From a virus (taxonomy: Duplodnaviria; Caudoviricetes), in the IMG/VR virus record IMGVR_UViG_3300028588_000019, positions 1-64,000 of that record: 64,000 bases of DNA. The stretch is one strand, 5' to 3'. The notes under the pieces are model-generated. The model saw nothing but the letters and a program-made list of their open reading frames with translations, ran no database searches and was not told the origin of the DNA. Below are positions 13,331 to 41,292 of this stretch, piece by piece. How positions within the stretch are numbered: position 1 is the first letter of the stretch; every line of letters starts with the position of its first letter. The position numbers and the translations under genes are program-made.

Positions 13331-13900
13331 ATGCAAAACGCTAAATTCGGTAATACCAAAAACGCAATCGCACGTATGCAAGCACGCATTGCAGCTGTAC
13401 AAGCACTGCGCAGCAGCAAGCACGCTGCTCGGGTTGCAGCACGCAACCAACAAGCGTTTACCCTGCAAATGCAGCAGCTAGCAGCACAGTACAACGTTGC
13501 ACCCGAGCAGCTTAAAGCAATGCTTGGTGCTACCGACCGTGCAGCACGCGCTAACAGTGCAACTGCTAACCCTAGCACCGAACTGGTAACGGTTAACGGT
13601 GTTAGTTACAAACCATGCGCAGCAGTGCACGCACTGTGCGATTGGTTGGTTAGCACCGAACCAAACGCAACCCGTAAGCAAATGTTGGAGTTGTGCAAGG
13701 ATAATGGCATTAACGCAAGTACTGCTGCAACGCAGGTCGGTTTGTACCGTGCACGCGCTAAAGCAGCAGCAGACGCAGCACAGTAATGCAGCAGCACCCC
13801 GAACAGGGGTGCGCTTGCTAGTGTACCTTGGCAACAGGGTGCACCACCAAGCAACAACGTAGCAGATACAAGGTACGCAAGGCGCCCTACCCCTCGCTGG
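13151..13900. other. GA/TC-depleted island
   Basis: No GA or TC dinucleotide from 13151 to 13347; about 12 in the 456-bp ORF that follows (manual count). Confidence 0.9.
13331..13786 (+). CDS. Ala/Gln-rich protein with C-terminal wHTH-like domain (paralog family member 1)
   Basis: C-terminal AVHALCD...RKQMLELCKDNGINASTAATQ aligns with the proteins at 18422, 39782 and 40696. Confidence 0.7.
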   Translation: MQNAKFGNTKNAIARMQARIAAVQALRSSKHAARVAARNQQAFTLQMQQLAAQYNVAPEQLKAMLGATDRAARANSATANPSTELVTVNGVSYKPCAAVHALCDWLVSTEPNATRKQMLELCKDNGINASTAATQVGLYRARAKAAADAAQ

Positions 13901-14239
13901 GTAGCATCGCTGACCAGCACACCAATGGGTGTGAACAATTAGTAAGCTCTTTAACAATCTATAAGCTCTGCTCCCACGTTTACACCTTCACGAATAGGGT
14001 GTGGGATGACAGGCAACCCCCATGAGTAACCGCGTGCGTGTATGAGCCCGGGACCAAGGATTAAAAGCCGCATGGGGGAAAATATATTCAGTGGTCCGAC
14101 CTAACCTGAGTAACAGCTAGTACCTTATCACGAGAAGGTTAGTCAGCATGGTCGGGGTGTGCCCGCGTGACAGGCGGCATACTTATGTTCACTACCAAGT
14201 GCACATAAGTTGATAACCACACTAACAGGGGAATTAATC

Positions 14240-14479
14240 ATGGCATACAACGCTAATATCGAGCAACTTGCAGTCGACATCAAAAGCTTGACCGATACCG
14301 ACCTGCAATACCTCGTCAGCTTGCTCAGCAGCGACAGTGACATGGAGGACGACGTCCGCGAGTCAAGCTGCATGGGTGCAATGGCTTACGCATACCGTAC
14401 CAGCCGTGCAGTCATCGCTCAGCGCGACTTCAACCTGCGCGAGCAGGCAGCGATGGATGACGCGAACTACAAATGGTAG
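14240..14479 (+). CDS. Small early protein
   Basis: AGGGG RBS; starts MAYNANIEQL. Confidence 0.6.
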   Translation: MAYNANIEQLAVDIKSLTDTDLQYLVSLLSSDSDMEDDVRESSCMGAMAYAYRTSRAVIAQRDFNLREQAAMDDANYKW

Positions 14480-14527
14480 AGTAATTTACTAGCTTGCCGT
14501 GGCAGGCTAGTGAGTGCACTCTGCACT
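14480..14527 (+). repeat. Two-hairpin intergenic element, copy 1
   Basis: AGTAATTT + ACTAGCTTGC-CGTG-GCAGGCTAGT + G + AGTGC-ACTCT-GCACT. Confidence 0.85.
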
Positions 14528-14550
14528 AAACCAACTAACAGGAGTAATTC

Positions 14551-14700
14551 ATGGCAAAGTATAAGATTTCTTACACCCTCAACGGTGCACCACGGAGCAA
14601 GGCTGTTTCAGCTGAAAGCGACGGAGAAGCTTGGGAGCTAGCTGAAGAAATAGCTGACCAGTTTGACGACTGTGAAATCATAAGCGTTGTCGAACAGTAA
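14551..14700 (+). CDS. Small early protein (49 aa)
   Basis: AGGAG RBS; MAKYKISYTLNG...; below the ORF-track cutoff. Confidence 0.65.
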   Translation: MAKYKISYTLNGAPRSKAVSAESDGEAWELAEEIADQFDDCEIISVVEQ

Positions 14701-14752
14701 GAGTAATTTAGTAGCCTATTCACGAGTAGGTTACTGAGTGCGCTCTTGCACT
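14701..14752 (+). repeat. Two-hairpin intergenic element, copy 2
   Basis: GAGTAATTT + AGTAGCCTATT-CACG-AGTAGGTTACT + G + AGTGC-GCTCTT-GCACT. Confidence 0.85.
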
Positions 14753-14777
14753 AAAACAACAACATAGGGAGTAACTC

Positions 14778-14975
14778 ATGAAAATGATTAAATTCGGTCT
14801 TATCCTCACCTTCACGCTTAACACCGTACTGCTTGGCGCTTTTGACCGCTGGGCTAAGTCCGGTGATGGTTTGGAGTGGTACGGTTTGCTGATGGAAGTT
14901 GCAGTGAGTCTTGCAATGTTGGCAAACTTGCTGTCCGCTTCCATGGTGGCAATTTTGCATGCGGAGGGCAAGTGA
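14778..14975 (+). CDS. Small two-TM membrane protein
   Basis: GGGAG RBS; two hydrophobic helices. Confidence 0.6.
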   Translation: MKMIKFGLILTFTLNTVLLGAFDRWAKSGDGLEWYGLLMEVAVSLAMLANLLSASMVAILHAEGK

Positions 14976-15058
14976 CCCTCTACATCACTCTGCTCGGGTA
15001 CGTTGTACCTGCAATCGCAATCACGTACTTCGTCAAAACCATCATTAACGACCTGTGA
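14972..15058 (+). CDS. 28-aa single-TM peptide
   Basis: GTGA overlap; MTLYITLLGYVVPAIAITYFVKTIINDL. Confidence 0.5.
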   Translation: MTLYITLLGYVVPAIAITYFVKTIINDL

Positions 15059-15110
15059 AAGTAATTTGTAAGCCTGGCGCGCTAGGCTTGCGAGTGCACT
15101 TTCCCGCACT
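15059..15110 (+). repeat. Two-hairpin intergenic element, copy 3
   Basis: AAGTAATTT + GTAAGCCTGG-CGCG-CTAGGCTTGC + G + AGTGC-ACTTTCCC-GCACT. Confidence 0.85.
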
Positions 15111-15132
15111 ATCACAACATAAAGGTAATACT

Positions 15133-15483
15133 ATGAACACCATCACCACCCACGCAGCATACATCGCTCACCTCGTTTCTAACGGTCGTCACGCAGGCCT
15201 TGCCAAAGCAATGGTCACCGAGTTCTTCTGGTCAAGCATTAACGGACCAGAAAACGACCTGTTGTATTCGGGTAGCGACGAGGAAACGCCATGCAGCCTC
15301 GAGCCAGCGCAAGCACTTGCCGAATTCGATGCAATTGTTCATGATTACAACGCTGCTGTAACCGAGGATGGCATCATGTTCGACGGTGAACTTATGTTCG
15401 ACCTCGACGGTGAGTATGCCACAAGCGGCTCAGGCAACGCATCGATCGTTCGTGGCTACGAGAACGGCGGTAACTTCAACTAA
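15133..15483 (+). CDS. Acidic early protein
   Basis: AAGG RBS; D/E-rich, 116 aa. Confidence 0.65.
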   Translation: MNTITTHAAYIAHLVSNGRHAGLAKAMVTEFFWSSINGPENDLLYSGSDEETPCSLEPAQALAEFDAIVHDYNAAVTEDGIMFDGELMFDLDGEYATSGSGNASIVRGYENGGNFN

Positions 15484-15533
15484 GAGCAATTTACTACCTC
15501 AGCGTGCTGGGGTAGTGAGTGCGCTCTTGCACT
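15484..15533 (+). repeat. Two-hairpin intergenic element, copy 4
   Basis: GAGCAATTT + ACTACCTCAG-CGTG-CTGGGGTAGT + G + AGTGC-GCTCTT-GCACT. Confidence 0.85.
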
Positions 15534-15553
15534 ATCACAACATAAGGATTCAC

Positions 15554-15682
15554 ATGTACACAATTATCGCCTTGATTGAAGTTTGCCATGAAGTAGTCTT
15601 CACCCGCGACGGGTTGTACCTCGTCACCACCATCGTGGACCACTTCAACAAGCGCACCATCCAAATTGCAGAGGAGATCTAA
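15554..15682 (+). CDS. Small early protein
   Basis: AAGGA RBS; starts MYTIIALIEV. Confidence 0.55.
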   Translation: MYTIIALIEVCHEVVFTRDGLYLVTTIVDHFNKRTIQIAEEI

Positions 15683-15684
15683 TC

Positions 15685-15903
15685 ATGCGTCATCCAATCG
15701 ACTTTCAAGCTTCGCATGCTCAGATTAAAGAAGACCCTGAGTACGCAATCGAAGTGCTTGTTCACTATGTGCCGTTCAACCTGCACATGATGATTAACGA
15801 ATTCATGGACGAGTTCGTACAAAAGCATTCATTCCAGGTGTACACGGCCAGCCCACTCGTTGGTCAGTTCTTCATGTGGTTGAAGGACACCCACAAAGAT
15901 TAA
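15685..15903 (+). CDS. Small early protein
   Basis: GAGGAG RBS; 72 aa. Confidence 0.65.
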   Translation: MRHPIDFQASHAQIKEDPEYAIEVLVHYVPFNLHMMINEFMDEFVQKHSFQVYTASPLVGQFFMWLKDTHKD

Positions 15904-15952
15904 AGCTCTAGCTAAGTGGTCTTCACGGGCCACTTGACGAGCGCTTTGCTCG
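15904..15952 (+). repeat. Two-hairpin intergenic element, copy 5 (variant B)
   Basis: AGCTCTAGCT + AAGTGGTC-TTCACG-GGCCACTT + GA + CGAGC-GCTTT-GCTCG. Confidence 0.75.
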
Positions 15953-15969
15953 CTAACAAAGGAACTAAA

Positions 15970-16260
15970 ATGACTAAGATTGAATTAACGCAGTTCAAAC
16001 AGACCAACCTGCGCGATGTTCTTGAACGTGCACAGGAACTCTTGGTGAGTCTTGCAACCATCTGCAACGACAACAAGAGCCGAATCCAAATCGCTGAAAA
16101 GATGCTGAAGCAAGTTGACCCAGGCGATGACTGGGAGCGGGTTGCTTGGTCGCTGGTCAACATCGAGTTGGTTGAGCGGATTATTCGTGAAGAGGACGCA
16201 AGCCTTCTGAAGTATCCTGAAGACTGGGATGGCGGCATCAACGTTGGGACGAAGGAGTAA
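15970..16260 (+). CDS. Small early protein
   Basis: AAAGGA RBS; starts MTKIELTQF. Confidence 0.65.
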   Translation: MTKIELTQFKQTNLRDVLERAQELLVSLATICNDNKSRIQIAEKMLKQVDPGDDWERVAWSLVNIELVERIIREEDASLLKYPEDWDGGINVGTKE

Positions 16261-16263
16261 TTC

Positions 16264-16452
16264 ATGATTAAGCTGATCCCGCTCCCAAAGACGCCGAAGG
16301 TTCGCGTCAACCTGCACCTCGAGGAAGGTGTGGTCGCCCACTTCAAGCATGTCGCTGAGCTTGAAGAACGCCCATACCAGCCACTCATTAACAAGGTGCT
16401 TCGCGAGTATATCGAGTCGCTGCCGCCTGAGCAACGTTATCACAATCGCTGA
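16264..16452 (+). CDS. BrnA-antitoxin/CopG-like ribbon-helix-helix protein
   Basis: KVRVNLHLEEGVVAHFK...PYQPLINKVLREYI matches the BrnA pattern VtiRld.dV..wFk...gYQtriN..LR. Confidence 0.7.
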   Translation: MIKLIPLPKTPKVRVNLHLEEGVVAHFKHVAELEERPYQPLINKVLREYIESLPPEQRYHNR

Positions 16453-16570
16453 GGTGCTGATGTGTTTTGGGACTACGTTCTAGCAGTCATTGCACTGTGT
16501 TTGATCCCACCCGCCGTCGTATTCCTGATTCTTTGGTGGTTTGGCGACGACTTTTAATTAGGAGAGCGAA

Positions 16571-16789
16571 ATGAGTAAACCCCTCACGATTGAACAAGAA
16601 ATCCACGCTCGCATCAAACGGACCGAGCTTTTCGCAGCAATGAGGTCTTCAGGTAATTACGAAGACGATCTTGCAATTATCGACATCATTCTCGAAATGC
16701 GCGAGCGTGCCCGCAACGGGGGTGACCCCGAAGAACTCTTATACGAAGAGGGCTTTGAACCCGACTACGTATTTGACCTTATTGACTAA
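16571..16789 (+). CDS. Small early protein
   Basis: AGGAG RBS; DPEELLYEEGFEPDYVFDL acidic C-terminus. Confidence 0.7.
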   Translation: MSKPLTIEQEIHARIKRTELFAAMRSSGNYEDDLAIIDIILEMRERARNGGDPEELLYEEGFEPDYVFDLID

Positions 16790-16845
16790 AGCTCTAGCTC
16801 ATGACCACACTACCACGGTGCGGTCATGGTCGAGCGCTTTGCTCG
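16790..16845 (+). repeat. Two-hairpin intergenic element, copy 6 (variant B)
   Basis: AGCTCTAGCT + CATGACC..CACG..GGTCATG + GT + CGAGC-GCTTT-GCTCG. Confidence 0.75.
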
Positions 16846-16863
16846 TAATAGAAAGGACATTGT

Positions 16864-17028
16864 ATGCTGCAATACAGAAAGGCGCTGATTGATTTCAGCC
16901 ACGAGTACTTCCATCAGTACATCGATGAATTCCTTGCGGGATACAGCATCCCAGCAGGTATGACCTATCCTCAACTTGTCCACCAGTTCGCTGAGTGGTG
17001 CGAGTCTTGCGGCTTTTGGGAGGTTTAA
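16864..17028 (+). CDS. Small early protein (54 aa)
   Basis: AAAGGA RBS; starts MLQYRKALIDF. Confidence 0.55.
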   Translation: MLQYRKALIDFSHEYFHQYIDEFLAGYSIPAGMTYPQLVHQFAEWCESCGFWEV

Positions 17029-17030
17029 CC

Positions 17031-17237
17031 ATGAAGTTCGAATTCAAAAGCTCGAACGGCCAACTCATGATGAGTATTGAGTCCCCGAACACTAAGTTCG
17101 CCAAGCTGGTCAAGCAAATGTTCATTAACGAAATGAAAGACATTCACGGACCAGGCTTCAACATGTCCGTCTCCACTCCTATCGAGGGTGGGACGTTCGA
17201 GCAATACAGCCACGGTATCGAGTGCCGGGTATCATAA
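17031..17237 (+). CDS. Small early protein
   Basis: GGAGG RBS; starts MKFEFKSSNG. Confidence 0.6.
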   Translation: MKFEFKSSNGQLMMSIESPNTKFAKLVKQMFINEMKDIHGPGFNMSVSTPIEGGTFEQYSHGIECRVS

Positions 17238-17291
17238 AGTAATCTCCTAGCTCGTTCTGCGGGCTAGTGGATGCACTTTAAATATGTGTAT
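17238..17291 (+). repeat. Two-hairpin intergenic element, copy 7 (degenerate)
   Basis: AGTAATCT + CTAGCTCG-TTCTG-CGGGCTAG + altered second hairpin ATGCAC..GTGTAT. Confidence 0.5.
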
Positions 17292-17353
17292 GCACTTTTG
17301 CTTTTGCCATGGTATAATAACCGTGTTGTTCAATTTCACGACAAGGATAAACC

Positions 17354-17821
17354 ATGAGCAAGCGTCACGACATAAGCGGTCAAAAGTTTAATCAACTCAC
17401 TGTAACGAGTTTCTCGCACACAAGCCCAACAAGGCGTGCGATGTGGAATTGTGTCTGTGATTGTGGAGGCACAACAGTTGTGTCACTGCAAAACCTGCGC
17501 AATGAAAAGGTCAAAACTTGCGGGTGCATATTCACGTACCTCTGCCAAGATGAGATCTATGGTGTTTGGAGGGGTATGATTCAACGCTGTACCAATCCAA
17601 ACTCTGAAGGTTGGAAGCATTATGGTGGTCGAGGGATTACTGTCTGCGAACGATGGAAGTTGTTTAAGAACTTTCATGAAGATATGAGCCCGCGCCCTAG
17701 TCCCGAGTACCAGTTGGACCGCAAGAACAATGACGAAGGGTACTCAAAAGACAATTGTCATTGGATTACAGGCCTTGAGAACATTCAAAAGGCACACGCA
17801 ATTAAACGAAGTAAATCTTAA
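17354..17821 (+). CDS. HNH homing endonuclease
   Basis: WNCVCDCG, WRGMIQRCTNP, YGGRGITVCERW, LDRKNNDEGYSKDNCHW motifs; own extended -10 (TGGTATAAT) at about 17311. Confidence 0.9.
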   Translation: MSKRHDISGQKFNQLTVTSFSHTSPTRRAMWNCVCDCGGTTVVSLQNLRNEKVKTCGCIFTYLCQDEIYGVWRGMIQRCTNPNSEGWKHYGGRGITVCERWKLFKNFHEDMSPRPSPEYQLDRKNNDEGYSKDNCHWITGLENIQKAHAIKRSKS

Positions 17822-17843
17822 CAACGTAAAGGACAGACTAATC

Positions 17844-18122
17844 ATGAATAATCAGAACGCCCCGCAAACCGGTCAAGTATTCACCGGCGCAGGCATCGAC
17901 TACTACCGCTTGACCACACTCAAGCATGCTCTGAAACTGGAGTCCAAAGGCTTGAAGTCACGCGGAGGAGCACTTCGTCCGCAGTGGCATGCGCAACTTG
18001 GCCTTCGTTCACGTGACTCTTACCTCGTTTTCGTGAACAGGATCATTGACTTGCAGAACGAGTATCTCAAAGCTAATGGAACACCAGCTGAAAAGCTCAT
18101 TCCACATCTGGAGTCATTATAA
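17844..18122 (+). CDS. Hypothetical protein
   Basis: AAAGGA RBS; LKHALKLESKGLK motif. Confidence 0.65.
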   Translation: MNNQNAPQTGQVFTGAGIDYYRLTTLKHALKLESKGLKSRGGALRPQWHAQLGLRSRDSYLVFVNRIIDLQNEYLKANGTPAEKLIPHLESL

Positions 18123-18421
18123 GACGCAGAGTCGACGCCAAAATAAATTGTAACAGTTCCGTCCAATTGCGCGCAAACAAGCCCACAGCACCGAAAATCG
18201 GTTAAACTGGGCGTGTTGGTGCAGTAATTAGCGGGGTTTTGGGGGGTTTTTGGGTGCGGGTGCGCCCTACCCCCTAACCTAGTGCGCAAAACAGCGCCTA
18301 GGGTGCTTGCCGTGCGCGGCAGCTACCTTGCGGGTTACATGGTAAGTCCCCACGTTGCAGCTGCAAGGGGGTTTACCGGGTAATCTTGCCCAAGTTCTTT
18401 CACAATCTAAGGAGAAACACC

Positions 18422-19198
18422 ATGGCACAAGCTCAAACCTCCGCAGCTCCTGGCAAAACCAAAGCTGCGCCACGCGCATCCCGCGCAAAGAAACCGCAAG
18501 CTGAGCAAGTCGTGCAGACGACTGGCAATGCAACGGGCCCTGGCGGCAAGAACATGCCAGAAGTCACCGCGCAGAACCAGAACCCGCCTGAAATCACGCA
18601 AGAGCAGCGTCAAGGTGAACGTCGTCAGCAACAGCAGAGCGCAATCGCGCGCTTTGCCAACCAGTCGATGGACACCCCGGCAGCTCACAACGTGCCTGAA
18701 GTCACGGACGAACAGCGTAAGCTGATCGCCTTCCAGGAGCAGATGCGCATCACCGCTGAGCAGTTCGGTGTGCAGCTTCCGCCAAACCTCGAAGACGTGC
18801 TCAACGGCAAGGTTGAACAGCCGCAAGCTCAAGGCGCGCAGGGTGCACAACGTGCTCCGCGCAACGCTGACAGCCAGAACGGTGTCACGCGCCCTGCCAA
18901 GGGTACGAAGACCGGTCAGGTGTGGGACGCAGCCGACGCAATCTCGACCAGCAAGAACGGCCAACCGGCCACGATTGCTGAAGTCAAAGAGAAGTTGGCT
19001 GGTAGCGTCAACGACGCCACGACCCGCACGCAGTATTCGCGGTGGCGTAACTACCACGGCATCAAAGGCCGGCTCGATGCTCAACCTCAGCAGCAACAAG
19101 CTGCCAGTCCTGAAGGACGTGACGAGGGTATCGAGAAAGCCTTCGGTCGTCGCAAGGACGATGTCGACCGTCGCCAAGCTGAACCAGCTGCACAGTAA
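18422..19198 (+). CDS. Gln/Ala-rich protein with C-terminal wHTH-like domain (paralog family member 2)
   Basis: AAGGAG RBS; NGVTRPAKGTKTGQVWDAAD...VNDATTRTQYSRWR. Confidence 0.8.
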   Translation: MAQAQTSAAPGKTKAAPRASRAKKPQAEQVVQTTGNATGPGGKNMPEVTAQNQNPPEITQEQRQGERRQQQQSAIARFANQSMDTPAAHNVPEVTDEQRKLIAFQEQMRITAEQFGVQLPPNLEDVLNGKVEQPQAQGAQGAQRAPRNADSQNGVTRPAKGTKTGQVWDAADAISTSKNGQPATIAEVKEKLAGSVNDATTRTQYSRWRNYHGIKGRLDAQPQQQQAASPEGRDEGIEKAFGRRKDDVDRRQAEPAAQ

Positions 19199-19207
19199 TA
19201 CAATTTC

Positions 19208-19238
19208 AACCCCGCCCTGAACCAGCGGGGTTTTTTAT
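19208..19238 (+). terminator. Intrinsic terminator
   Basis: AACCCCGC-loop-GCGGGGTT followed by a T run. Confidence 0.7.
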
Positions 19239-19261
19239 TGGCAAAACTTTAGGAGTTAATC

Positions 19262-19435
19262 ATGATGAGTGGTGAAAAGCTTTACGCACTCTACGAAGAG
19301 GGGAACTCCACGTTGAACAATTGTATCGTCGACACTTGGGAGCAGTTATCAACTGACGACAAAGCTGTTTGGGAGCGCATGGCAGAAGATATCAACGACC
19401 ATACGCAACGTGCCATTACCGACGTATTCACCTAA
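19262..19435 (+). CDS. Small protein (57 aa)
   Basis: AGGAG RBS; its stop TAA abuts hammerhead 1. Confidence 0.6.
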   Translation: MMSGEKLYALYEEGNSTLNNCIVDTWEQLSTDDKAVWERMAEDINDHTQRAITDVFT

Positions 19436-19484
19436 CCACACTGACGAGACCTCAATGGTCGAAACCGCTTCGGCGGTCTGTGGT
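19435..19484 (+). ncRNA. Type I hammerhead ribozyme 1
   Basis: ACCACA CTGACGA GAC-CTCAATG-GTC GAAA CCGC-TTCG-GCGG TC TGTGGT: intact core, three stems, predicted cleavage after C19478. Confidence 0.92.
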
Positions 19485-19514
19485 ATGTGCCACGAGTAAC
19501 AGAAAGGAAGTAAG

Positions 19515-19796: not shown

Positions 19797-19806
19797 GGAG
19801 TTAGCC

Positions 19807-20046: not shown

Positions 20047-20054
20047 TAATCACG

Positions 20055-24872: not shown

Positions 24873-25142
24873 ATGTTTGGAGGAGCCAATAAGTCGGACA
24901 ACATGCGCCTGGAAATGGCAATTGCTGCGGCTTTAAAGAAAGAAGCACAGGAAAAGATTGCAGCAGGTATTGAACCTGAAGTCCCACGTGAGAAGATCAT
25001 TTGGAGTGCAACCTTTCCGGCATTACCGAAAATGAAGCCAATCCAGAGCGACGATCCTGTTCTGTTCAAACAGACCATTGATAAACTGCGTGCGCAACTT
25101 CCTGGAACGACGATTAACATCTACGAAATCCGCGGGCTGTAA
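24873..25142 (+). CDS. Hypothetical protein
   Basis: GGAGG RBS just downstream of hammerhead 3. Confidence 0.65.
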   Translation: MFGGANKSDNMRLEMAIAAALKKEAQEKIAAGIEPEVPREKIIWSATFPALPKMKPIQSDDPVLFKQTIDKLRAQLPGTTINIYEIRGL

Positions 25143-25143
25143 T

Positions 25144-25674
25144 ATGTCAAAAGTTATTGCAAGAGAGGTGCAGCAACGCCTCCATAAATTTGAACGTTGG
25201 TTGAAGTCACGTGGTGCCGAAATTCTTATAAACACCAACCAATACGAGTTAATCCGTTTTCGCGGAACCAAAGGTACGTCCATTGTTTACCGCAAGGACA
25301 ACCTTGATGCGGCTGCAAGCTTTTTCAACGAAGCTGAAGATGCTTGGTGCAACTATTTGGTGAACGGTCCGTGGCGTGCTATTTTGCCCACACCAAGGCA
25401 AGCCGGTCACCGCAATGGCGTCGAAATGCGCACCATCCGCGCACGCGACGGTAACGATTGCTTCTTTTGCTGTGAATACGTTACTGAGCACTCTGCAACA
25501 ATCGAGCATCTTGTTGCTCTTGGTCAGGGTGGACCGCAGCACATCAGCAACAAGTTCCTAGCCCACGGCGAGTGCAACATGCGCGCAGGTAACATTAGCG
25601 CACCGGAAAAGATTAAGATACACACTGACGCGCTTTTGCGCAAGAACGGAAGGAAGGTTTATGAACCAAGCTGA
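25144..25674 (+). CDS. HNH endonuclease with N-terminal extension
   Basis: RDGNDCFFC...TIEHLV...GG....N...AHGECN. Confidence 0.85.
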   Translation: MSKVIAREVQQRLHKFERWLKSRGAEILINTNQYELIRFRGTKGTSIVYRKDNLDAAASFFNEAEDAWCNYLVNGPWRAILPTPRQAGHRNGVEMRTIRARDGNDCFFCCEYVTEHSATIEHLVALGQGGPQHISNKFLAHGECNMRAGNISAPEKIKIHTDALLRKNGRKVYEPS

Positions 25675-34635: not shown

Positions 34636-34664
34636 TTGCATATACGTAACAACGCGCGCATAAT
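34636..34664 (+). promoter_or_regulatory. Sigma70-like promoter
   Basis: TTGCAT-17 nt-CATAAT. Confidence 0.65.
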
Positions 34665-34730
34665 AGCGGTTCCTGTTCAAGCAGGTAAGTCCCCGGTTCA
34701 CGCCGGGGAATTCTAACAAACGGAGAGTAA

Positions 34731-35573
34731 ATGTCCATCCTCGGAGCAGTTACCCACACTTCCCAAGGCATCCAGCCCGGTATCCGCGCAGTCATCGCGG
34801 GTGTCGAAAAAATGGGTAAGACCACCCTGACGACCAATGCACCGCGTGCGCTGCTGGTCCCACTCGAAATCGGTTACAGCGGCGTGCAGGTCAATATGAC
34901 CCCGATGCTGACCGAGTTCCAGCATGTGTTGATGCTGCTGGACGAACTTATCGCTTCGCGCATGGCTGGTACGCTGCCGTATCTGAGTGTTGTGATCGAC
35001 AGCGCTACCGCACTCGAGCGTCTGATCCATAACGACGTGCTCAAGCGTGACCCGCAATATGCGCCGGGTAACAAGAAAACCGTCACCATGGACTCGGCGC
35101 TCGGCGGTTACGGTAAGGCCTACGCCTTCTCGAACGAGCTATTCGAGAACTTCCTGAAAAAGTGCGACCAACTGTCGCAGATGGGGATTAATATCATCCT
35201 CACCTGCCACGTTTTCGCAGCGGAAGTCGTTGACCCGACCGCAGGCACGTTCAATACGTGGGATCTGCTGCTGCATTCGCCGAAAAACCAGAAGACCTAC
35301 GGCAAGCGTGAAATGATGACGCAGTGGGCTGACCTTATCGGTTTCCTGCACGAACCCATCTTCGTCACCGAAGGTAAAACGATGAACCAAGCTGTGAGCC
35401 AAAACAAAGGCCGCGTCCTGGGCATCGCTCGTCAACCCGGTTATGTGGCGGGTAACCGTTACAACATGACCGACGAAATCCAGATTCCGTCGCAAAACGG
35501 CTGGAACAGCCTCGCTGCACAGATCTGGCAGTGCAGTGGTAAGAACTACTACAATCAGGACGTTGCACAATGA
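34731..35573 (+). CDS. Sak4-like AAA ATPase (AAA_24)
   Basis: GVEKMGKT Walker A, VIDS Walker B, GYGK.Y, EWADL-like, AGNRY. Confidence 0.85.
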   Translation: MSILGAVTHTSQGIQPGIRAVIAGVEKMGKTTLTTNAPRALLVPLEIGYSGVQVNMTPMLTEFQHVLMLLDELIASRMAGTLPYLSVVIDSATALERLIHNDVLKRDPQYAPGNKKTVTMDSALGGYGKAYAFSNELFENFLKKCDQLSQMGINIILTCHVFAAEVVDPTAGTFNTWDLLLHSPKNQKTYGKREMMTQWADLIGFLHEPIFVTEGKTMNQAVSQNKGRVLGIARQPGYVAGNRYNMTDEIQIPSQNGWNSLAAQIWQCSGKNYYNQDVAQ

Positions 35574-35743
35574 CCACACATCTGCATCCAGCGCTGCGCG
35601 GCGCTGCAAACATCCAAAAGCGCATCCACTTCAGCCGTCTGCGTGCACACGCGCACGCCAATGGCAATCTGCGCCCAACGCGCATTGCTGAAGCTGTGAA
35701 CGTGATGTTCCAGGGCGGCGTGCCTTTCAGCTGGGGTAAGTAA
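35570..35743 (+). CDS. Small basic protein
   Basis: ATGA overlap; 57 aa. Confidence 0.5.
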   Translation: MTTHLHPALRGAANIQKRIHFSRLRAHAHANGNLRPTRIAEAVNVMFQGGVPFSWGK

Positions 35744-35744
35744 C

Positions 35745-35993
35745 GTGAACCACCAGCGCATCAAACCCGCAGAGTCACCTATCGACGAGTTGTTGAACCG
35801 CGTGCAGGAAATTCTGAATATCCGCACCCGGACAGCTACGATCAAAAAGATTGGTTCAACTCCGGCAACTGTTAGCCGCATCCGCAAAGGTGAGCTAACC
35901 CCGTCTGCGGATTTGGTGTTGCGGGTGCACGACTTAACCGGCTTGTCTGTTGCTGAAATTCGTAAGCTCGGCGACATTGCTATAACGATTTAA
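35745..35993 (+). CDS. XRE/Cro-type HTH protein
   Basis: IGSTPATVSRIRKGE..PS...VLRVHDLTG. Confidence 0.8.
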   Translation: MNHQRIKPAESPIDELLNRVQEILNIRTRTATIKKIGSTPATVSRIRKGELTPSADLVLRVHDLTGLSVAEIRKLGDIAITI

Positions 35994-36044
35994 CCCGCAA
36001 GCTGTCTGGCGTTTAACAGACAGCATTCTTCCTAGGAAAAAGAA

Positions 36045-36950
36045 ATGACCGCTTTTAATTTTAACGCAAATTCCGTCGCACCTGACTCCGGACGTGTTGG
36101 CGCGCTGCCTGCCGGCTGGTATGCTTCGATGCTGACCAAGACCGAAATCAAGCCCACCAACGGTGGCGGCGGCGCATATATCGCCGTGCAGGGTCAGGTT
36201 TCGGAAGGTCCGCACAAGGGCGCCAGCTGGTTCACCAACTTCAACATCCAGAACGCCAACGAAAAGGCTGTCGAAATTGGCATGGCGCAACTGTCGTCGC
36301 TGTGCCACGCAACCGGCGTCATGCAGTTCAGCGATACCGACCAGCTGAAAAACAAACCGTTTTACGTCCGCCTCAAGCTGGTGCCTGCCGAACTGAACGA
36401 ACCGGGCAACCCGGCCTCCGGCGTGAAATACGAAGAAAAGAACGAAGTGATGGCTTACCGCGCGATCACCGACCAGGCCGCAATGGAAGCAGCGAAGAAC
36501 CAAGCTGTCGCCAAGACGCCAGCCGGCGCGCAGGTTCCGCCGCAACAACCGCCGGCATTCGTTCCGCCGCAACAGCAGATGCAGCAGCAAGCGGCACCCG
36601 TCCAGCAACAGCAGCAGTGGAACCAACAGCCGCAACAACAGCAGGCACCACAGCAACAGCAATGGAGCCAGCAACCACAGCCGCAAGCCCCGCAACAGCA
36701 AGCTCCGCAACAGCAGCCGCCAGCATCGTGGCAGGGTCAGCAACAGCAGCAACAGCAGCAACAGGCGCCAGTTCAACAACAGCAAGCTCCTGCCGCTGAA
36801 GCACAACCAGCCTGGGCACAAGCTGGCGCCGCTCAACCGTGGGCACAGCAGCAAGCCCCGCAACAGCAGCAACAGCAGCAAGCTCCAGCCGGCCCGGCGG
36901 TAGATCCCGCAATGCCGGCCTGGATGCAGGGTCAGCCGCAACCACAGTAA
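36045..36950 (+). CDS. DUF669-type ssDNA-binding protein with long Q/P-rich tail
   Basis: LPAGWY..N-terminal OB-like domain, KNEV, then about 130 aa of Q/P/A; lies between Sak4 and the exonuclease. Confidence 0.8.
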   Translation: MTAFNFNANSVAPDSGRVGALPAGWYASMLTKTEIKPTNGGGGAYIAVQGQVSEGPHKGASWFTNFNIQNANEKAVEIGMAQLSSLCHATGVMQFSDTDQLKNKPFYVRLKLVPAELNEPGNPASGVKYEEKNEVMAYRAITDQAAMEAAKNQAVAKTPAGAQVPPQQPPAFVPPQQQMQQQAAPVQQQQQWNQQPQQQQAPQQQQWSQQPQPQAPQQQAPQQQPPASWQGQQQQQQQQQAPVQQQQAPAAEAQPAWAQAGAAQPWAQQQAPQQQQQQQAPAGPAVDPAMPAWMQGQPQPQ

Positions 36951-36953
36951 TGC

Positions 36954-36982
36954 GAAATGCCTTCCTTCGGGAGGGCATTTTT
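36954..36982 (+). terminator. Intrinsic terminator
   Basis: AAATGCCTTCC-TTCG-GGAGGGCATTTTT. Confidence 0.85.
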
Positions 36983-37060
36983 AGATGGTGAGACACATAC
37001 GTGTGGGCTTTATCTGCTGGCAAAGAACAGCTACCATCTAAAAATTCACAGAGGAGCATT

Positions 37061-37957
37061 ATGGCTGTCAGACTTGCAACAAAAACGCTCGCAGCAATTG
37101 ACCACACTATGATGGAAGATCAGGGTGCGGCTTTCCGCGTTTGGTCGGGTAAAGTGCTGCCTGCAATGAAGGACGCGTATCGGGGTGAAGAGGACGGTTT
37201 CCGTTCGCACCTTGGCGCATCAATGATTGGTCGCGCATGCGCTCGCGAAATTTGGTACGGCTTCCGCTGGAGCAAGAAGCCTAGGCACCAGGCGCGGACA
37301 CTTCGTCTTTTCAATAGGGGGCATCTTGAAGAAGCTCGATTTATCGCAGCCTTGCTGTCGATCGGTGTGCAGGTTGTGCAGCAAGATGCTAACGGCAATC
37401 AGTTCCGCATTAGTGACGCTGGTGGCCATTTTGGGGGCAGTGGTGACGGTGTTGCTTTGGGCATCCCTGACGTTCCTGCTGGGACTTGGTGTCTCTTAGA
37501 ATTCAAAACGCACGGTGACAAGTCCTTCCAGAAGCTGAAAAAAGAAGGCGTCAAGATTGCCAAGCCCGAGCATTATACGCAGATGCAAGTCTACATGCGC
37601 AAGATGCAATTGACCGTTGCGCTGTACGGTGCTGTCAATAAGAACGACGACGAGTACCACTTCGAAATTATCGTCATTGACCCGTTGCACGCCGACCAGT
37701 TCCTGGACCGCGGGCGACAAATCGTGCGTCTGCACAAAGCACCAGAGCGCATTAACGAGTCGCCAGGCTGGTACGAATGCAAGTTCTGCGACTACAAGCC
37801 GATCTGCCACGGTGGTGAACCGCCTGAGCGCAACTGCCGTACTTGCCACCATGTGCGCTGTGACGACACGAACGGCTCGTGGGTGTGTGGTCAAACAGGT
37901 GAAGTCCGCGATAAGGAAGCTCAACTCGCTGGCTGCGACGACTATTTGGTGAACTAA
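37061..37957 (+). CDS. Cas4-like PD-(D/E)xK exonuclease
   Basis: HLGASMIG..C.R, GSGDG, LEFKT, QMQVYM, C-terminal CKFC..C..C cluster. Confidence 0.88.
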   Translation: MAVRLATKTLAAIDHTMMEDQGAAFRVWSGKVLPAMKDAYRGEEDGFRSHLGASMIGRACAREIWYGFRWSKKPRHQARTLRLFNRGHLEEARFIAALLSIGVQVVQQDANGNQFRISDAGGHFGGSGDGVALGIPDVPAGTWCLLEFKTHGDKSFQKLKKEGVKIAKPEHYTQMQVYMRKMQLTVALYGAVNKNDDEYHFEIIVIDPLHADQFLDRGRQIVRLHKAPERINESPGWYECKFCDYKPICHGGEPPERNCRTCHHVRCDDTNGSWVCGQTGEVRDKEAQLAGCDDYLVN

Positions 37958-39702
37958 TGTCTGTTCGCCTCATACCCCGCGACTATCAGCTGGAAACAGT
38001 TAATAGCATCTTTCGTTACTTTCAGGCAAACCGCACTGGCAATCCGGTTGCGGGGTTGCCCACGGGTACGGGCAAGGCTTTCTGCATTGCCTACTTCCTG
38101 TTCAAAGCTCTGGAGATGTATTCCAAGCAAAAGATTCTCGTTGCGACACACGTTAAAGAGCTTGTTGACCAGAACTATAAAGAGTTCATTGAAATCTGGC
38201 CGCAAGCTCCGGCAGGTGTCTACAGTGCCGGTTTGAAGCGCAAAGATACGCATCAGTCTGTTATCTTCTGCGGTATTGCGTCGATTGCTAAGAATATCGA
38301 AGCTTTCGGTCGGGTGGACTTAGTGATTGTGGACGAGTGCCACCTCATCAGCCTCAAAGAAGACTCGATGTACCGTGCGGTATTTGACGCGCTCAAGGTT
38401 ATTAATCCGAACCTTCGCATCATTGGTTTCACCGCCACCCCATGGCGCGCTGGTCAAGGTCGTCTTACCGAAGGCGATGGTATCTTTACCGATATGTGTA
38501 TCGACCTTACCGACATGGCGTCCTTTAACCGCTTTGTGCGGGAGGGGTACTTAGTCCCACTGGTGTCCAAGCCTACAAAGCTCTTGCTTGACGTTACAGG
38601 GGTTAAAATCACAGCAGGTGAGTATAACGAGAAATCGCTGGACTTGGCTGTAAATAAAGACCATATCACTTTTGCTGCACTTCAGGAGGCGCAGCAGTAT
38701 GCGTACGAAACAGGGCGCCGTAGTTGGATCATTTTTGCAACAAGCCTAGCGCATGCCGACAAGATTAAAGAAATGCTGGAATATCTCGGTGTGACTTGTC
38801 GTGTCGTGCACAGTAAAATGTCTTCGACCGAGCGTGACAACAACGTTGCTGACTGGAAAGCAATGAAGTTTACCGCCATCATTAACATGGGCGTCCTAAC
38901 AACTGGTGTGAACCATCCTGCGCTAGACTTAATTGTCATGCTGCGTCCAACAATGTCGTCTGTCCTTTGGGTACAGATGCTCGGTCGCGGGACTCGTCCG
39001 TTATTTGTTCGTGAAGGTTACGACTTAACAACCATCCAAGGGCGACTCGATTCTATTGCTGCTAGTGCAAAACAGTATTGTCTAGTAATGGACTTTGCGG
39101 GTAACATCAAGCGCTTGGGACCCGTCAACGACCCGGTCATCCCCCGCAAGAAGGGTGCATCAAAAGGCGAAGTCCCGATTAAAGAATGCGACGCTTGCGG
39201 GATGTATAACCACATCAGTGCGAAGTGGTGCGGTGGCACCCCATTCAAAACGAATGAAGGTTGCGGCGCGGAGTTTGTATTCCGTGTACAGCTGAAGCAG
39301 GAAGCAAGCACCGAGGCTGTCGTTCGTGAGGACGACTTACCTGTTATTGAAACCTTCCCTGTGATGCAAACGACCGCCTCAGTGCATCGAAAAGAGGGTA
39401 AGCCTGACAGCTTGAAGGTGACGTACTATTGCTTCACCAAAAAGTTCACAAAGTACATTCTAATTGAGCATCCCGGATTTGGCCGTCGCAAAGCTGAAAT
39501 GTGGTGGAGTGAGCGAACGAACTTGACTTTACCCATCACAACGGCTGAGGCAATGGAAATATTCACGGAGCTTAGCGTACCGACTCACATCCAAGTGTGG
39601 ACAAACGCTCCGTATCCTGAAATTATGAAGGAGTGCTTCATGGGCGAATTTGCAAATAGCGTCCCCGGTAACGAACTTGCAAAGAATGATATTCCGTTCT
39701 AA
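37957..39702 (+). CDS. SF2 helicase (RadD/YejH-like) with Zn finger
   Basis: PTGTGKA, DECH, TATP, LTTG, QMLGRG.R, KECDAC. Confidence 0.92.
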   Translation: MSVRLIPRDYQLETVNSIFRYFQANRTGNPVAGLPTGTGKAFCIAYFLFKALEMYSKQKILVATHVKELVDQNYKEFIEIWPQAPAGVYSAGLKRKDTHQSVIFCGIASIAKNIEAFGRVDLVIVDECHLISLKEDSMYRAVFDALKVINPNLRIIGFTATPWRAGQGRLTEGDGIFTDMCIDLTDMASFNRFVREGYLVPLVSKPTKLLLDVTGVKITAGEYNEKSLDLAVNKDHITFAALQEAQQYAYETGRRSWIIFATSLAHADKIKEMLEYLGVTCRVVHSKMSSTERDNNVADWKAMKFTAIINMGVLTTGVNHPALDLIVMLRPTMSSVLWVQMLGRGTRPLFVREGYDLTTIQGRLDSIAASAKQYCLVMDFAGNIKRLGPVNDPVIPRKKGASKGEVPIKECDACGMYNHISAKWCGGTPFKTNEGCGAEFVFRVQLKQEASTEAVVREDDLPVIETFPVMQTTASVHRKEGKPDSLKVTYYCFTKKFTKYILIEHPGFGRRKAEMWWSERTNLTLPITTAEAMEIFTELSVPTHIQVWTNAPYPEIMKECFMGEFANSVPGNELAKNDIPF

Positions 39703-39781
39703 AAATAAATGTGTTTGCGCTGCCGCATGTGCTGTACAATGTGTGCTTGTGGTAGCGCAAACCTTAAAGGAGATGTGACTT

Positions 39782-40534
39782 ATGTATGTTGTCATAGACC
39801 GCGAATACTTGTGTGTCAAGTACAAGCACCCAAACCAATCCGCCATTAACAATCTGGCGTGCATTGAAATCCCGTACCAGCCAATCGTCGTTGTTAGCGC
39901 GACTGATAAAGATAGCTTCGAGTCTTTTACGGACTACGAACTGAAGGTTATGTACGAAAACCTGTGCGGACTGCTGTACTCGGGCTTTCGTCGTCCGGAC
40001 CTCGTCACAAGCGTAATCCGTTTGATTGGTATGTTGTCTGAAACCGACTTGGTCCCTCGTGAAGTTGACCAACAACTGGACACCATCAAGGACCCGGACG
40101 ATGGCCCGTTCCAATACGTGCGCGGTTCAGCTGTACCGAAAAAGCAGAACGAGCTCTGGCTACCACCTACGATGGTCACTCGCGACGGCGTCATCCCAAA
40201 CGGAAAAAAGTACCATGTACCAGACCCCGTTAAACGCGTGCAACCTCTGTACAGCCCCGTATATACCAACCCCGCACTGTTTGCAGCGCCTAGCACCCCT
40301 GCCGCGCGTGCAAACAGCACCGGGGAACCCAGCGCACCAGCGGCACCGCCCAAAGCGGGTAGCACAACAGGTCGGGTATGGGCAATTGCGGACGACTGCT
40401 ACCAGAAGCACTCGGTTCTCGACAAGACCCTGCGCAAGATGGTTGCTGACGAATGCGAAGCGCAGGGTATCAATTCCTCCACCATGAGCGTGCAGTTCAG
40501 CAAATGGAAGGGACACAAATTGGCACAGTCCTAA
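39782..40534 (+). CDS. Protein with C-terminal wHTH-like domain (paralog family member 3)
   Basis: PKAGSTTGRVWAIAD...ECEAQGINSSTMSVQFSKWK. Confidence 0.75.
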   Translation: MYVVIDREYLCVKYKHPNQSAINNLACIEIPYQPIVVVSATDKDSFESFTDYELKVMYENLCGLLYSGFRRPDLVTSVIRLIGMLSETDLVPREVDQQLDTIKDPDDGPFQYVRGSAVPKKQNELWLPPTMVTRDGVIPNGKKYHVPDPVKRVQPLYSPVYTNPALFAAPSTPAARANSTGEPSAPAAPPKAGSTTGRVWAIADDCYQKHSVLDKTLRKMVADECEAQGINSSTMSVQFSKWKGHKLAQS

Positions 40535-40594
40535 GTGTCAAGGCAAGCACTTTTTCGTGATCCAAAAATATTTGCTTGTATCCGAAAAAAGTGC

Positions 40595-40623
40595 TTGCAG
40601 TTAGTAAATAAGCCGGTTATAGT
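40595..40623 (+). promoter_or_regulatory. Sigma70-like promoter overlapping an inverted repeat
   Basis: TTGCAG-17 nt-TATAGT; IR GCAAGCACTTTTTCG...CGAAAAAAGTGCTTGC. Confidence 0.7.
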
Positions 40624-40695
40624 TAAGCCTCACTCGCCGCAAACAGTGTAACGTAGTTAATCCAGTTTACATCAAATCATTATTAGGAGTTTCAA

Positions 40696-41292
40696 ATGTC
40701 CGAGCAAAAATCCCAAGAGCAAATCGCAGCAGAAGCTGCTGAAACCAAAGCCAAAGCCGACGCCGCCAAAGCGGAAGCGAAAGCTGCCAAAGACAAGGCC
40801 GCCGCTGAAGCCAAGGAAAAGAAACAAGCCGCCGCTGCCGAAGCCAAGCGCCTGAAGGACGAAGCCAAGGCCGCCGAGAAAGCCGAAAAAGAAGCCAAAG
40901 CTGCCGCTGCTGCCAAAGAAAAAGCCGACAAAGCCGCTGCCGCTGCTGCCGAAAAAGCCGCTACTGCCGCTGCCAAGGTCAAGGTCGTCATGCCATCGCA
41001 AAACGGTATCACCCGTCCGAAGACCGGCACCAAGACCGGCGACGTCTGGGCCCTGGCCGACAAGCTGTCCACCGAAAAGAATGCGCCGATCGCTATCGCT
41101 GAACTGCTGCCAGCCGGCGCCGCCGCAGGCCTGAACGACGCGACCATCCGCACGCAATACGCACGCTGGAAAACCTTCAACGGCATCTTCGGTTCGGTCA
41201 AAGCTGCACCGAAAGCCCCTGAAACCCCGGCACCGACCGCGCAGACCGAACAGACCGCCGGCGCCGAAGCAACCGAACCGGCCGCCGCCTAA
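40696..41292 (+). CDS. Histone H1-like (Ala/Lys/Glu) protein with wHTH-like domain (paralog family member 4)
   Basis: About 95 aa of AKE repeats, then NGITRPKTGTKTGDVWALAD...LNDATIRTQYARWK. Confidence 0.85.
   Translation: MSEQKSQEQIAAEAAETKAKADAAKAEAKAAKDKAAAEAKEKKQAAAAEAKRLKDEAKAAEKAEKEAKAAAAAKEKADKAAAAAAEKAATAAAKVKVVMPSQNGITRPKTGTKTGDVWALADKLSTEKNAPIAIAELLPAGAAAGLNDATIRTQYARWKTFNGIFGSVKAAPKAPETPAPTAQTEQTAGAEATEPAAA

Follow-up and report, generated by a model that had tools for sequence, protein, structure and literature searches.

Four proteins encoded by a siphophage share a C-terminal domain that is predicted to have a helix-turn-helix (HTH) fold. They are located in a stretch of 64,000 nucleotides, positions 1 to 64,000 of IMG/VR record IMGVR_UViG_3300028588_000019 (Duplodnaviria; Caudoviricetes), which will be referred to as the window and represents most of a genome of 72,474 bases. 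The proteins (P1 to P4) have this domain of about 65 residues in common and differ in their N-terminal segments. It is reasonably probable that they bind the phage genome and have a regulatory or architectural role, as part of a new HTH family. The domain itself probably binds DNA, mainly because its relatives are found in nucleases, beside a PIN-domain partner and in MuF proteins, settings where a DNA-targeting module would be expected.

The analysis establishes the homology, predicted fold, synteny, distribution and fusions of the domain, the depletion of GA/TC dinucleotides in the P1 gene, and the occurrence of P2 in RNA libraries. The original prediction had described a nucleoid- or chromatin-like protein family of the phage. 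The shared HTH-type domain, the four unlike N-termini and the largely phage-borne occurrence agree with this description, and the reading preferred here is a regulatory or architectural role.

The shared domain and its predicted fold

The homology among P2, P3 and P4 is evident from BLASTP. P2 and P4 have 49% identity over 86 residues (E = 4e-24), and P3 and P4 have 33% identity over 54 residues (E = 2e-7). P1 gives nothing against P4 (E = 81) and a marginal match to P3 (E = 0.006). A profile hidden Markov model was built without P1, from 74 distinct domain sequences from 42 IMG/VR loci plus P2–P4, and compared with the 835 open reading frames (ORFs) of at least 40 residues in the window. It detects P4 (E = 1.4e-31), P2 (2.7e-25), P3 (1.5e-24) and also P1 (5.7e-10), and the next ORF has an E value of 0.67. 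These results confirm the common C-terminal domain that had been proposed for the four proteins, and by its profile score P1 is a true, divergent member of the family. The whole genome contains exactly four matches to the domain. The sequence motif originally given for all four holds literally for P2–P4 but only in part for P1, which has V-H/C-D for V-W/A-D, and V/Y for Y/F and W.

The domain copies are encoded on the plus strand at positions 13565–13774 (P1; E = 4.5e-16 with profile A3, which includes P1), 18848–19072 (P2; E = 1.3e-24), 40304–40525 (P3; E = 6.2e-25) and 40969–41199 (P4; E = 1.5e-31). In the PHROGs collection, P2 and P4 match phrog_18634 (E = 1.5e-19 and 6.3e-30, respectively) and also phrog_11298. 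P3 is a member of phrog_7864 over its full length, residues 1–246 being aligned with profile positions 1–240 of 242 (E = 1.8e-38), and it reaches phrog_18634 only at 0.0024. P1 has no PHROGs match at 0.01. All three of these groups are listed as "unknown function", and PHROGs leaves the four classes unjoined.

The N-terminal segments are those that had been described, as seen from composition counts and, for P3, from a structural model. P1 (151 residues; gene at 13331–13786, plus strand) is the product of the first gene in the plus-strand early block. Ahead of its divergent copy of the domain it has a basic N-terminus rich in Ala, Gln and Arg (pI 11.6), with 22 Ala and 10 Gln among residues 1–84. 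P2 (258 residues; 18422–19198, plus strand) has an N-terminus rich in Gln, Ala and Pro (25 Gln and 22 Ala in residues 1–147), the domain at about residues 148–220, and an acidic, Gln-rich tail. Its ORF opens at a TTG codon (18386), and the count of 258 residues starts from the ATG at 18422, which lies behind AAGGAG. P3 (250 residues; 39782–40534, plus strand) contains a confidently predicted globular N-terminal domain (residues 1–150), a Pro/Ala linker and the C-terminal domain. P4 (198 residues; 40696–41292, plus strand), encoded directly upstream of QueE, has an N-terminus rich in Ala, Lys and Glu (43 Ala, 22 Lys and 14 Glu in residues 1–97), the domain, and a tail rich in Ala, Pro and Thr. 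The label "histone H1-like" that had been attached to P4 reflects composition only, and no Pfam HC2/H1 match is found. P4 has no match to HC2 (PF07382) at E ≤ 1, and one relative in the family, P0145, scores 21.3 bits against a cutoff of 40.

The structure of the P4 domain (an 82-residue construct) was predicted with AlphaFold2 from a 71-row alignment, with a mean predicted local distance difference test (pLDDT) score of 78.8. The model shows an extended N-terminal arm with short strands, followed by three helices (residues 20–35, 41–50 and 55–68). The model of full-length P3 has a pLDDT of 88.1, and of 95–98 in the domain, where the helices are at residues 195–209, 215–227 and 232–249. A three-helix core with a tight turn ahead of the last helix is present in both predicted models. 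The domain had been described as winged-HTH-like, and this part of the description is not borne out. No strand follows helix 3 in either model, P3 ends one residue past this helix, and the short strands that do occur are confined to the N-terminal arm in the P4 model.

Most of the N-terminal domain of P3 is predicted with block-mean pLDDT values above 90 (83 for residues 101–110 and 72 for residues 141–150), and the linker falls below 50 at residues 157–163 and 170–179. This N-terminal domain (39782–40231) has an alpha/beta fold and is conserved in Queuovirinae. Within the full-length model, it has no informative fold or ESM Atlas neighbor. Uncharacterized homologs of P3 are found in phages R7M, SE1Kor and PBPA162.

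Among the 71 sequences, P15 is invariant, V24, W25, N54, T57, Q61 and W65 are at least 90% conserved, and G52, in the turn ahead of helix 3, is 87% conserved. Helix 3 has the near-invariant pattern N-x-x-T-x-x-x-Q-(Y/F)-x-x-W. The arm has the consensus R-P-K, and the pI of the domain is 8.6–9.9. We infer that the conserved G52, N54-x-x-T57-x-x-T-Q61-Y-x-x-W65 and P15, together with the basic pI, would fit a classic HTH with a flanking arm. Helix 3 is nearly the same in P2 and P4 (N-[DE]-x-T-[IT]-[RK]-T-Q-Y-x-R-W), so these two probably have a common DNA preference. P3 has a different helix 3 (N-x-S-T-[MA]-S-V-Q-[FY]-x-K-W), and so does P1.

The predicted fold resembles homeodomains and Hin-type HTH domains in having an arm and three helices, a Gly ahead of helix 3, and a polar/aromatic helix 3 that ends in Trp and a basic residue. 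The arm is also reminiscent of the N-terminal arm of Hin recombinase, which lies in the minor groove. DNA-bound homeodomains are the best Foldseek rows for the P3 model, with Dlx5 at E = 2.4 and template modeling (TM) scores by target of 0.40–0.49. There are also differences from these domains. The Foldseek E values are no better than 2.4 with TM scores by target below 0.5, the arm reads R-P-K-x-G, unlike that of homeodomains or Hin, and the family has its own invariant set of Asn, Thr, Gln and Trp and is phage-borne. For the P4 model, the best rows are PefI (E = 0.65), sigma region 4, the N-domain of RNA polymerase delta and the DNA-binding domain of Rok, all of them weak. The weak neighbors from VIA are RecX, the winged helices of MCM and Rpa2, the BsaWI N-domain, DpnI and cullin WHB, and the structural neighbors outside the family in the ESM Atlas are the winged helices of PaaX and MCM. 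The original prediction had named AlphaFold and Foldseek as a check of the domain. The models do have an HTH-type three-helix layout, but Foldseek gave no significant match.

Relatives in phages and bacteria

At 50% identity, the family contains at least 4016 clusters with representatives that match at E ≤ 0.001 among 1.84 billion, and 1932 of them match at E ≤ 1e-10. The family has no Pfam model and is so far undescribed. Among the best 150 representatives, 127 are short, and none of these reaches the curated cutoff of any Pfam family; stray Pfam rows at E ≤ 0.01 are seen for 11 of the 127. No account of the domain, the four-class family or GA-free zones in these phages was found in the library searched. 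PF18780 (HNH_repeat) is the only Pfam family with near-threshold similarity, and only to distant relatives. Against its cutoff of 26 bits, the MuF-fused protein P0035 scores 27.1 bits over its second domain copy and P0053 scores 29.1 bits, and two of the 71 domain sequences match at E ≤ 1 (best 0.0044). Membership of P1–P4 in this family was rejected, as they have no match to it and none of the 127 short representatives matches at E ≤ 0.01. In the literature searched, PF18780 appears only as a name in one repeat-modeling paper.

The longer relatives place the domain in head proteins and nucleases. Phage_Mu_F is found at E ≤ 0.001 in eight of the 11 representatives of at least 517 residues (517–1363 residues), with six of them above the Pfam cutoff. 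Two copies of the domain are located right behind Phage_Mu_F, and the C-terminus is an ADP-ribosyltransferase (ADPrib_exo_Tox, in three proteins) or contains HExxH. The C-terminal part of one MuF-fused relative matches annotated virion structural proteins. By their domain architecture, these relatives would be head or ejection proteins of the "polyvalent"/MuF-toxin kind. Polyvalent and MuF proteins are described in PMC5512222 as containing rare "other HTH domains" that are predicted to bind double-stranded DNA. The two domain copies behind Phage_Mu_F thus connect the family with SPP1 gp7-type and polyvalent proteins (PMC5512222; PMC5576092), but P1–P4 lack the MuF domain and are encoded in the early and replication modules rather than the head module. 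No MuF-fused form is present among the cultured phages in the collection, and a search of genome contigs with P0035 found no relative.

Fifteen loci in bacterial genomes and metagenome-assembled genomes (MAGs) were found with a three-row alignment of the domain. Two ORFs of 910 and 912 residues have the domain fused to GmrSD_N and GmrSD_C (Orf5/SspE/type IV-like in PADLOC) and adjoin an MmeI-type enzyme. In two Acidobacteria MAGs (L088, 9320–12822; L089, 8723–12324), a PDC-S02 N-domain is followed by the domain and NsnA (GmrSD_N in Pfam), and then by NsnB. This order, with a PDC-S02-type N-domain and the HTH ahead of DUF262, is a variant that is not represented as such in PADLOC. Fusion to the PDC-S02 N-domain alone also occurs in bacterial loci. 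Another ORF with the domain, of 699 residues, has as its only Pfam rows HSDR_N/HSDR_N_2, below the cutoff (22.6–22.9 versus 25 bits), and its ATG-start form has no Pfam match at 1e-5; its neighbors are a type IIG enzyme, an SNF2/PLD helicase and an Hhe-like helicase-nuclease. The nuclease fusions are located inside defense islands. In a Gammaproteobacteria MAG (L092, 9962–10839), a protein of 167 residues with the domain at its N-terminus is encoded by a gene that overlaps a PIN-domain gene by 13 nucleotides. By analogy, this pair has the layout of an antitoxin and a toxin, with the putative antitoxin using this HTH. No longer fusion of the P4 domain scored when such forms were looked for, and the GmrSD fusion as query gave only four close relatives.

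These fusions connect the domain with the GmrSD-family type IV enzymes (GmrSD, BrxU, SspE and GrwAB) and with NsnAB. GrwAB targets 7-deazaguanine phages (PMC12137116). In contrast to the bacterial relatives, P1–P4 lack any nuclease or DUF262 part, with no DUF262/DUF1524, nuclease or PADLOC match in Pfam and PADLOC.

In phages, the domain marks siphophages with 7-deazaguanine modification, as its genus tallies nearly coincide with those of DpdA. With tblastn, P4 finds 136 records of cultured phages and the DpdA of the window finds 219. The numbers of records with the domain and with DpdA are 40 and 41 for Escherichia, 31 and 31 for Pseudomonas, 22 and 23 for Vibrio, 8 and 8 for Enterobacteria, 4 and 4 for Providencia, and 3 and 3 for each of Klebsiella, Salmonella and Stenotrophomonas; for Rhizobium they are 13 and 14, with P0031 as the domain query. 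The genus counts listed for the domain do not include Mycobacterium, which has 53 records with a distant DpdA.

The location of the domain genes is also conserved. They lie between the helicase and QueE in 34 of 42 IMG/VR loci; in six others one side is lost at the end of the contig and two have neither flank, so that 40 show at least one flank. Two or three domain ORFs are in tandem in 37 of the 42. The same helicase–QueE slot is seen in phage Iggy, where the domain proteins are QEA09772 (P4-like) and QEA09798 (P2-like). Synechococcus phage Ssp-JY38 keeps the cluster and two domain genes, the latter after PolA, and in Shewanella phage S0112 the helicase side is visible at the start of the record. 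The P3/P4 pair is a fixed part of the replication and modification module in 7-deazaguanine (Queuovirinae-like) siphophages.

The four classes are old. Each of four relatives with genomes of about 70 kb has a single gene per class, and a 59-kb relative has two domain genes. In a FastTree phylogeny of 82 domain sequences, the classes are monophyletic over five genomes, with support of 0.97 (P1), 0.56 (P2), 0.97 (P3) and 0.96 (P4). Monophyly and the presence of one gene per class indicate that the paralogy is old. The gene in the P3 slot of Iggy (39259–39663) has a GA/TC-free stretch of 157 nucleotides and no detectable HTH. In BFVD, the relative in PBPA162 has the N-terminal domain of P3, and the P3 class may have lost the HTH in the Iggy lineage. 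For phage R7M, 14 virion proteins are reported, 13 of them predicted to be structural and one hypothetical (ORF28).

In the window, minus-strand structural and lysis genes are found at both ends, and the plus-strand block of early, replication and modification genes extends from about 12,800 to 51,500. This block includes a complete 7-deazaguanine DNA-modification cluster (41585–47270, plus strand), in which the genes start at 41585 (QueE), 42529 (Gat-QueC-like), 43774 (QueD), 44524 (FolE) and 46248 (DpdA/TGT). The helicase gene (37957–39702, plus strand) forms the upstream border of the conserved P3/P4 slot. Two HNH endonuclease genes (17354–17821 and 25078–25674), the first of them just upstream of the P2 unit, are located in the early block and may be homing elements. 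A megablast search with 39700–41400 found no match among phage records, a set that may not contain the phage's own or near records. No Rfam family is present in the window at gathering thresholds.

GA/TC-free islands, transcripts and local signals

The dinucleotide GA is of interest here as a target of DpdA. According to the portions of the sources available, DpdA of Iggy modifies G in a strict GA context, at 97% of sites (PMC10484667), and the target of CAjan DpdA is GA plus GGC (PMC10484667; PMC7544227). Stretches free of GA/TC are therefore plausibly unmodified. GA/TC is the only one of the ten strand-symmetric dinucleotide classes with extreme longest gaps in all five genomes compared (the present one, G000, and its relatives G001 to G004), where the expected numbers of such gaps range from 1e-18 to 1e-4. 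Outliers in the other classes are scattered, for example AC/GT in G002 (3e-9) and TA in G001 (4e-6). Long AC/GT-free and AT-free gaps are also seen in the A/K/E-rich part of the P4 genes (40696–40990; 32671 in G002 and 37782 in G001), and are a compositional side effect of repeated GCN/AAR/GAR codons rather than a signal.

The strongest depletion is found at P1. A GA/TC desert of about 1 kb (12901–13900), covering the divergent control region and the whole P1 gene, is the single desert of this genome at the 400-nucleotide scale. Its longest gap, at 13150–13347, is 197 nucleotides, and 2.5e-7 such gaps would be expected in the genome. In G001 (65701–66800) and G002 (251–1500) the only desert is in the matching region, and G003 and G004 have no desert at the 400-nucleotide-scale threshold. 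Synonymous codons were resampled 2000 times with the codon usage of each genome, and the P1 gene has 12 GA/TC versus 36.2 ± 4.1 expected in G000, 3 versus 30.1 ± 4.0 in G001, 6 versus 27.2 ± 3.7 in G002, 27 versus 35.5 ± 4.0 in G003 and 27 versus 40.5 ± 4.2 in G004. Depletion in all five genomes indicates avoidance at the DNA level, beyond a low content of Asp and Glu. With the same resampling, no GA/TC depletion is found in the P2, P4, QueE and DpdA genes, and the P3 gene is mildly low, mostly in its linker.

Each of the four genes had been placed at a GA-poor island, and this holds up in a conserved manner only for P1. A G-rich intergenic island of 149 nucleotides (18198–18347; 9e-5 such gaps expected in the genome) lies 75 nucleotides upstream of the P2 start, but it is specific to this genome. 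The 300 nucleotides upstream of P2 contain 16 GA/TC here versus 34.8 expected, and the corresponding counts upstream of its orthologs are 31, 32 and 30 in G002, G003 and G004, with a weak reduction to 20 in G001. The gap near P3 (40246–40325, 79 nucleotides) is in the coding sequence of the Pro/Ala linker. It is the fifth longest gap in the window and borderline, with about 0.8 expected by a geometric estimate; a linker region chosen after the fact (40220–40345) has 3 GA/TC versus 10.8 ± 2.4 by synonymous resampling. The P4 gap (40584–40630, 46 nucleotides) ranks about 25th and is within chance.

Islands are also found away from the paralogs. A third strong island (51506–51624, 118 nucleotides) is located in the convergent gap between the DNA polymerase and lysis genes, with no paralog adjoining, and contains hairpins and two exact copies of the motif TAGGGGGTA. 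This motif, present in islands 2 and 3, has 11 matches at up to one mismatch versus 4.5 ± 2.1 in shuffles, a weak excess given that one shuffle in 100 also gives 11. The remaining islands are mostly located between genes or in linkers of low complexity, with no paralog adjoining. In Iggy, a desert upstream of the early operon (59901–60600) has 16 GA/TC versus 65.9 expected, and a second desert is in an SSB-like gene. No P1-like gene is detected in Iggy, and the islands therefore do not depend on P1, which suggests that the desert belongs to the early control region rather than to the P1 protein. The direct terminal repeat of Iggy is 1091 bp long, as given in the accessible text of PMC10484667. 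The last 1091 bp of the Iggy record contain 41 GA/TC versus 105.7 expected, and it may be speculated that the desert corresponds to a terminal repeat or to the end that enters first.

Four leaf-litter metatranscriptome runs, chosen for words of 12400–14400, were examined as contigs, which give neither strand nor level. The P2 gene (18400–19195) is covered by contigs in all four. A segment just downstream of P1 (13834–14156), covered in three of the four, spans a small ORF (13828–14025) and the spacer ahead of 14210, and may be an abundant small RNA or a 5′ leader. No contig in the four libraries covers the P1 gene or 14500–17800, which is not evidence that they are silent.

Local signals around the four genes are weak. 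Promoter and terminator consensus scans gave counts that are not above those of shuffles, and this applies as well to a terminator-like hairpin with a T-run directly 3′ of P2 (19214–19241, plus strand), which is a consensus match only. The predicted RNA folds of the P2 island (z = −2.9) and the P1 island (z = −2.5) are suggestive only. In the region 12680–14100, CAGGGTGCACCA occurs four times, with the last copy (13835) just past P1, and GTTCCAC(GCG)-type repeats occur several times at 12940–13170. These short repeats could be operator or origin repeats, and the region has no clear operator or iteron array.

Possible functions of the family

If the domain is a double-stranded-DNA binder, helix 3 would be placed in the major groove, with the arm along the minor groove or the backbone. 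The unlike N-termini would add class-specific properties, with P1 providing a basic helical stretch, P2 a Gln-rich stretch, P3 a globular domain, and P4 an extended helix or spacer of Ala, Lys and Glu. What we infer from the data is that the domain binds DNA and that the proteins act on the genome of the phage, and the same applies to any connection with modification. The overall layout of the proteins, in which a flexible linker joins a variable N-terminus to a small, basic domain at the C-terminus, resembles that of the nucleoid-associated proteins H-NS, MvaT and Rok, which combine an oligomerization domain, a linker and a DNA-binding domain, and Rok is among the weak Foldseek rows; there is no sequence relation to these proteins. 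The K/A/E-rich segment of P4 is similar to histone H1-like tails by composition only.

Several observations weigh against the reading of P1–P4 as DNA-binding factors of the phage genome. P1–P4 find nothing in Pfam, NCBIfam and PADLOC. Foldseek gives no match at E ≤ 0.001 for the P4 and P3 models, the VIA-align Z scores (up to 6.0 and 6.6) are below the level that is meaningful for small helical domains, and comparison of the profile with sequences in the Protein Data Bank gives one chance-level row (E = 1.2). Several of the weak neighbors (the Rpa2, MCM and cullin winged helices, and RecX) bind proteins rather than DNA. The helix-3 residues are nearly invariant across hosts that range from E. 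coli to cyanobacteria, which is not usual for regulators with sequence specificity. The co-occurrence with DpdA may reflect merely the common descent of one phage lineage, and relatives of Que, DpdA or the helicase are found within 10 kb in none of the 15 bacterial loci, so the domain is not tied to modification. The metatranscriptome contigs cannot exclude DNA carry-over, although their patchy cover fits RNA better than DNA.

The question of sequence specificity bears on a possible, if less likely, alternative, in which P1–P4 are sequence-specific transcription factors of the usual kind, activating or repressing promoters of the early, middle or late phase. P1 is encoded by the first of the early genes, positions 5 and 6 of helix 3 differ between the classes, and the setting beside a PIN-domain gene resembles that of operator-binding antitoxins. 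Class-specific positions in helix 3 and this antitoxin-like context favor some specificity, but the invariant residues of helix 3 and the use of the domain in nucleases and head proteins favor a low one. Promoter-like sites are not enriched, and no operator motif was found in the P1 region, where it was looked for. Relatives in GenBank have the unverified labels "transcriptional activator" or "FtrA domain-containing". An FtrA/AraC-type activator was rejected, as P1–P4 have no match to AraC HTH, FtrA or DJ-1/PfpI in Pfam and NCBIfam. It is rather unlikely that the domain is instead a protein–protein adaptor, comparable to the winged helices of Rpa2, MCM and cullin, which would recruit a conserved factor of replication, transcription or modification, for example the helicase, DpdA or the host RNA polymerase. 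Its weak structural neighbors include the C-terminal winged helices of Rpa2 and MCM, cullin WHB and RecX, its slot between the helicase and QueE is fixed, and the conserved surface residues could suit one conserved partner. However, none of these neighbors has a Z score above 6.6, the domain is basic with an R-P-K arm, nuclease fusions and an antitoxin-like position are typical of DNA-binding modules, and the bacterial copies occur without the phage partners.

Two further alternatives invoke the modified base. It is improbable, in our view, that the domain reads 7-deazaguanine-modified DNA, with the paralogs coating the bulk genome and leaving the GA-free control zones (the early region with P1, and intergenic islands) bare. 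The same low likelihood applies to the proposal that the phage copies shield against modification-dependent nucleases and that bacteria fused the reader to GmrSD/NsnA nucleases. In cultured Gram-negative siphophages the domain and DpdA co-occur nearly one-to-one by genus, and the domain genes adjoin the Que cluster. The near-invariance of helix 3 across hosts is expected for one common ligand. The bacterial fusions involve the GmrSD family, NsnA and the PDC-S02 N-domain, and according to PMC12137116 every Queuovirinae phage tested is restricted by the GmrSD-family GrwAB, escape mutations fall in DpdA, and GrwB carries "multiple domains of unknown function". Because of this restriction, the unassigned GrwB domains and the GmrSD/NsnA fusions, the reading of modified DNA is worth testing. 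It is weakened as a general function because the domain occurs far from Que/DpdA genes; its presence in MuF head proteins, beside a PIN-domain partner and in 15 of 15 bacterial loci with no Que/DpdA genes nearby would suit a general DNA binder. Moreover, the 53 DpdA-positive Mycobacterium records are outside the listed genus counts, and no base-flipping or modification-pocket feature is seen in the models. Most doubtful is the opposite proposal, that nucleoid- or chromatin-like paralogs recognize the unmodified GA-free islands or autoregulate from them. GA is a DpdA target in the related phages Iggy and CAjan (PMC10484667; PMC7544227), the islands are real and unique among the dinucleotide classes, two of the three strongest are directly upstream of P1 and P2, and the P1 gene is depleted at the DNA level in five of five genomes. 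On the other hand, the P2 island is not conserved, the P4 gap lies within chance expectation and the P3 gap is in a Pro/Ala linker. No paralog adjoins the island at 51506–51624 or the majority of the islands in G003, G004 and Iggy, and the GA-poor early control region of Iggy has no detectable P1. The type IV-like defense-nuclease fusions fit the reading of modified DNA at least as well.

Our preferred reading remains that P1–P4 are DNA-binding regulatory or architectural factors. Phages in which derivatives of 7-deazaguanine take the place of guanine are a current model for DNA hypermodification and the arms race with restriction and CRISPR. A large domain family without a Pfam model is now defined, and it is as characteristic of these phages as DpdA. 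The same module occurs in anti-phage nucleases, in ejected head proteins and in the partner of a toxin. Zones without the DpdA motif exist in the phage genomes, and one of them includes an entire gene that is kept GA-poor at the DNA level. The family and these zones are open to inexpensive experiments on how proteins read, avoid and exploit DNA modification in the major groove. If the proteins are plain regulators, they would still represent a new HTH family, and about 4000 "hypothetical" clusters could be annotated. If the domain does read modified DNA, the phage genome would have a simple chromatin-like layout and the phage copies could be competitive shields. Bacteria would then have captured the reader, giving type IV enzymes that find such phages.

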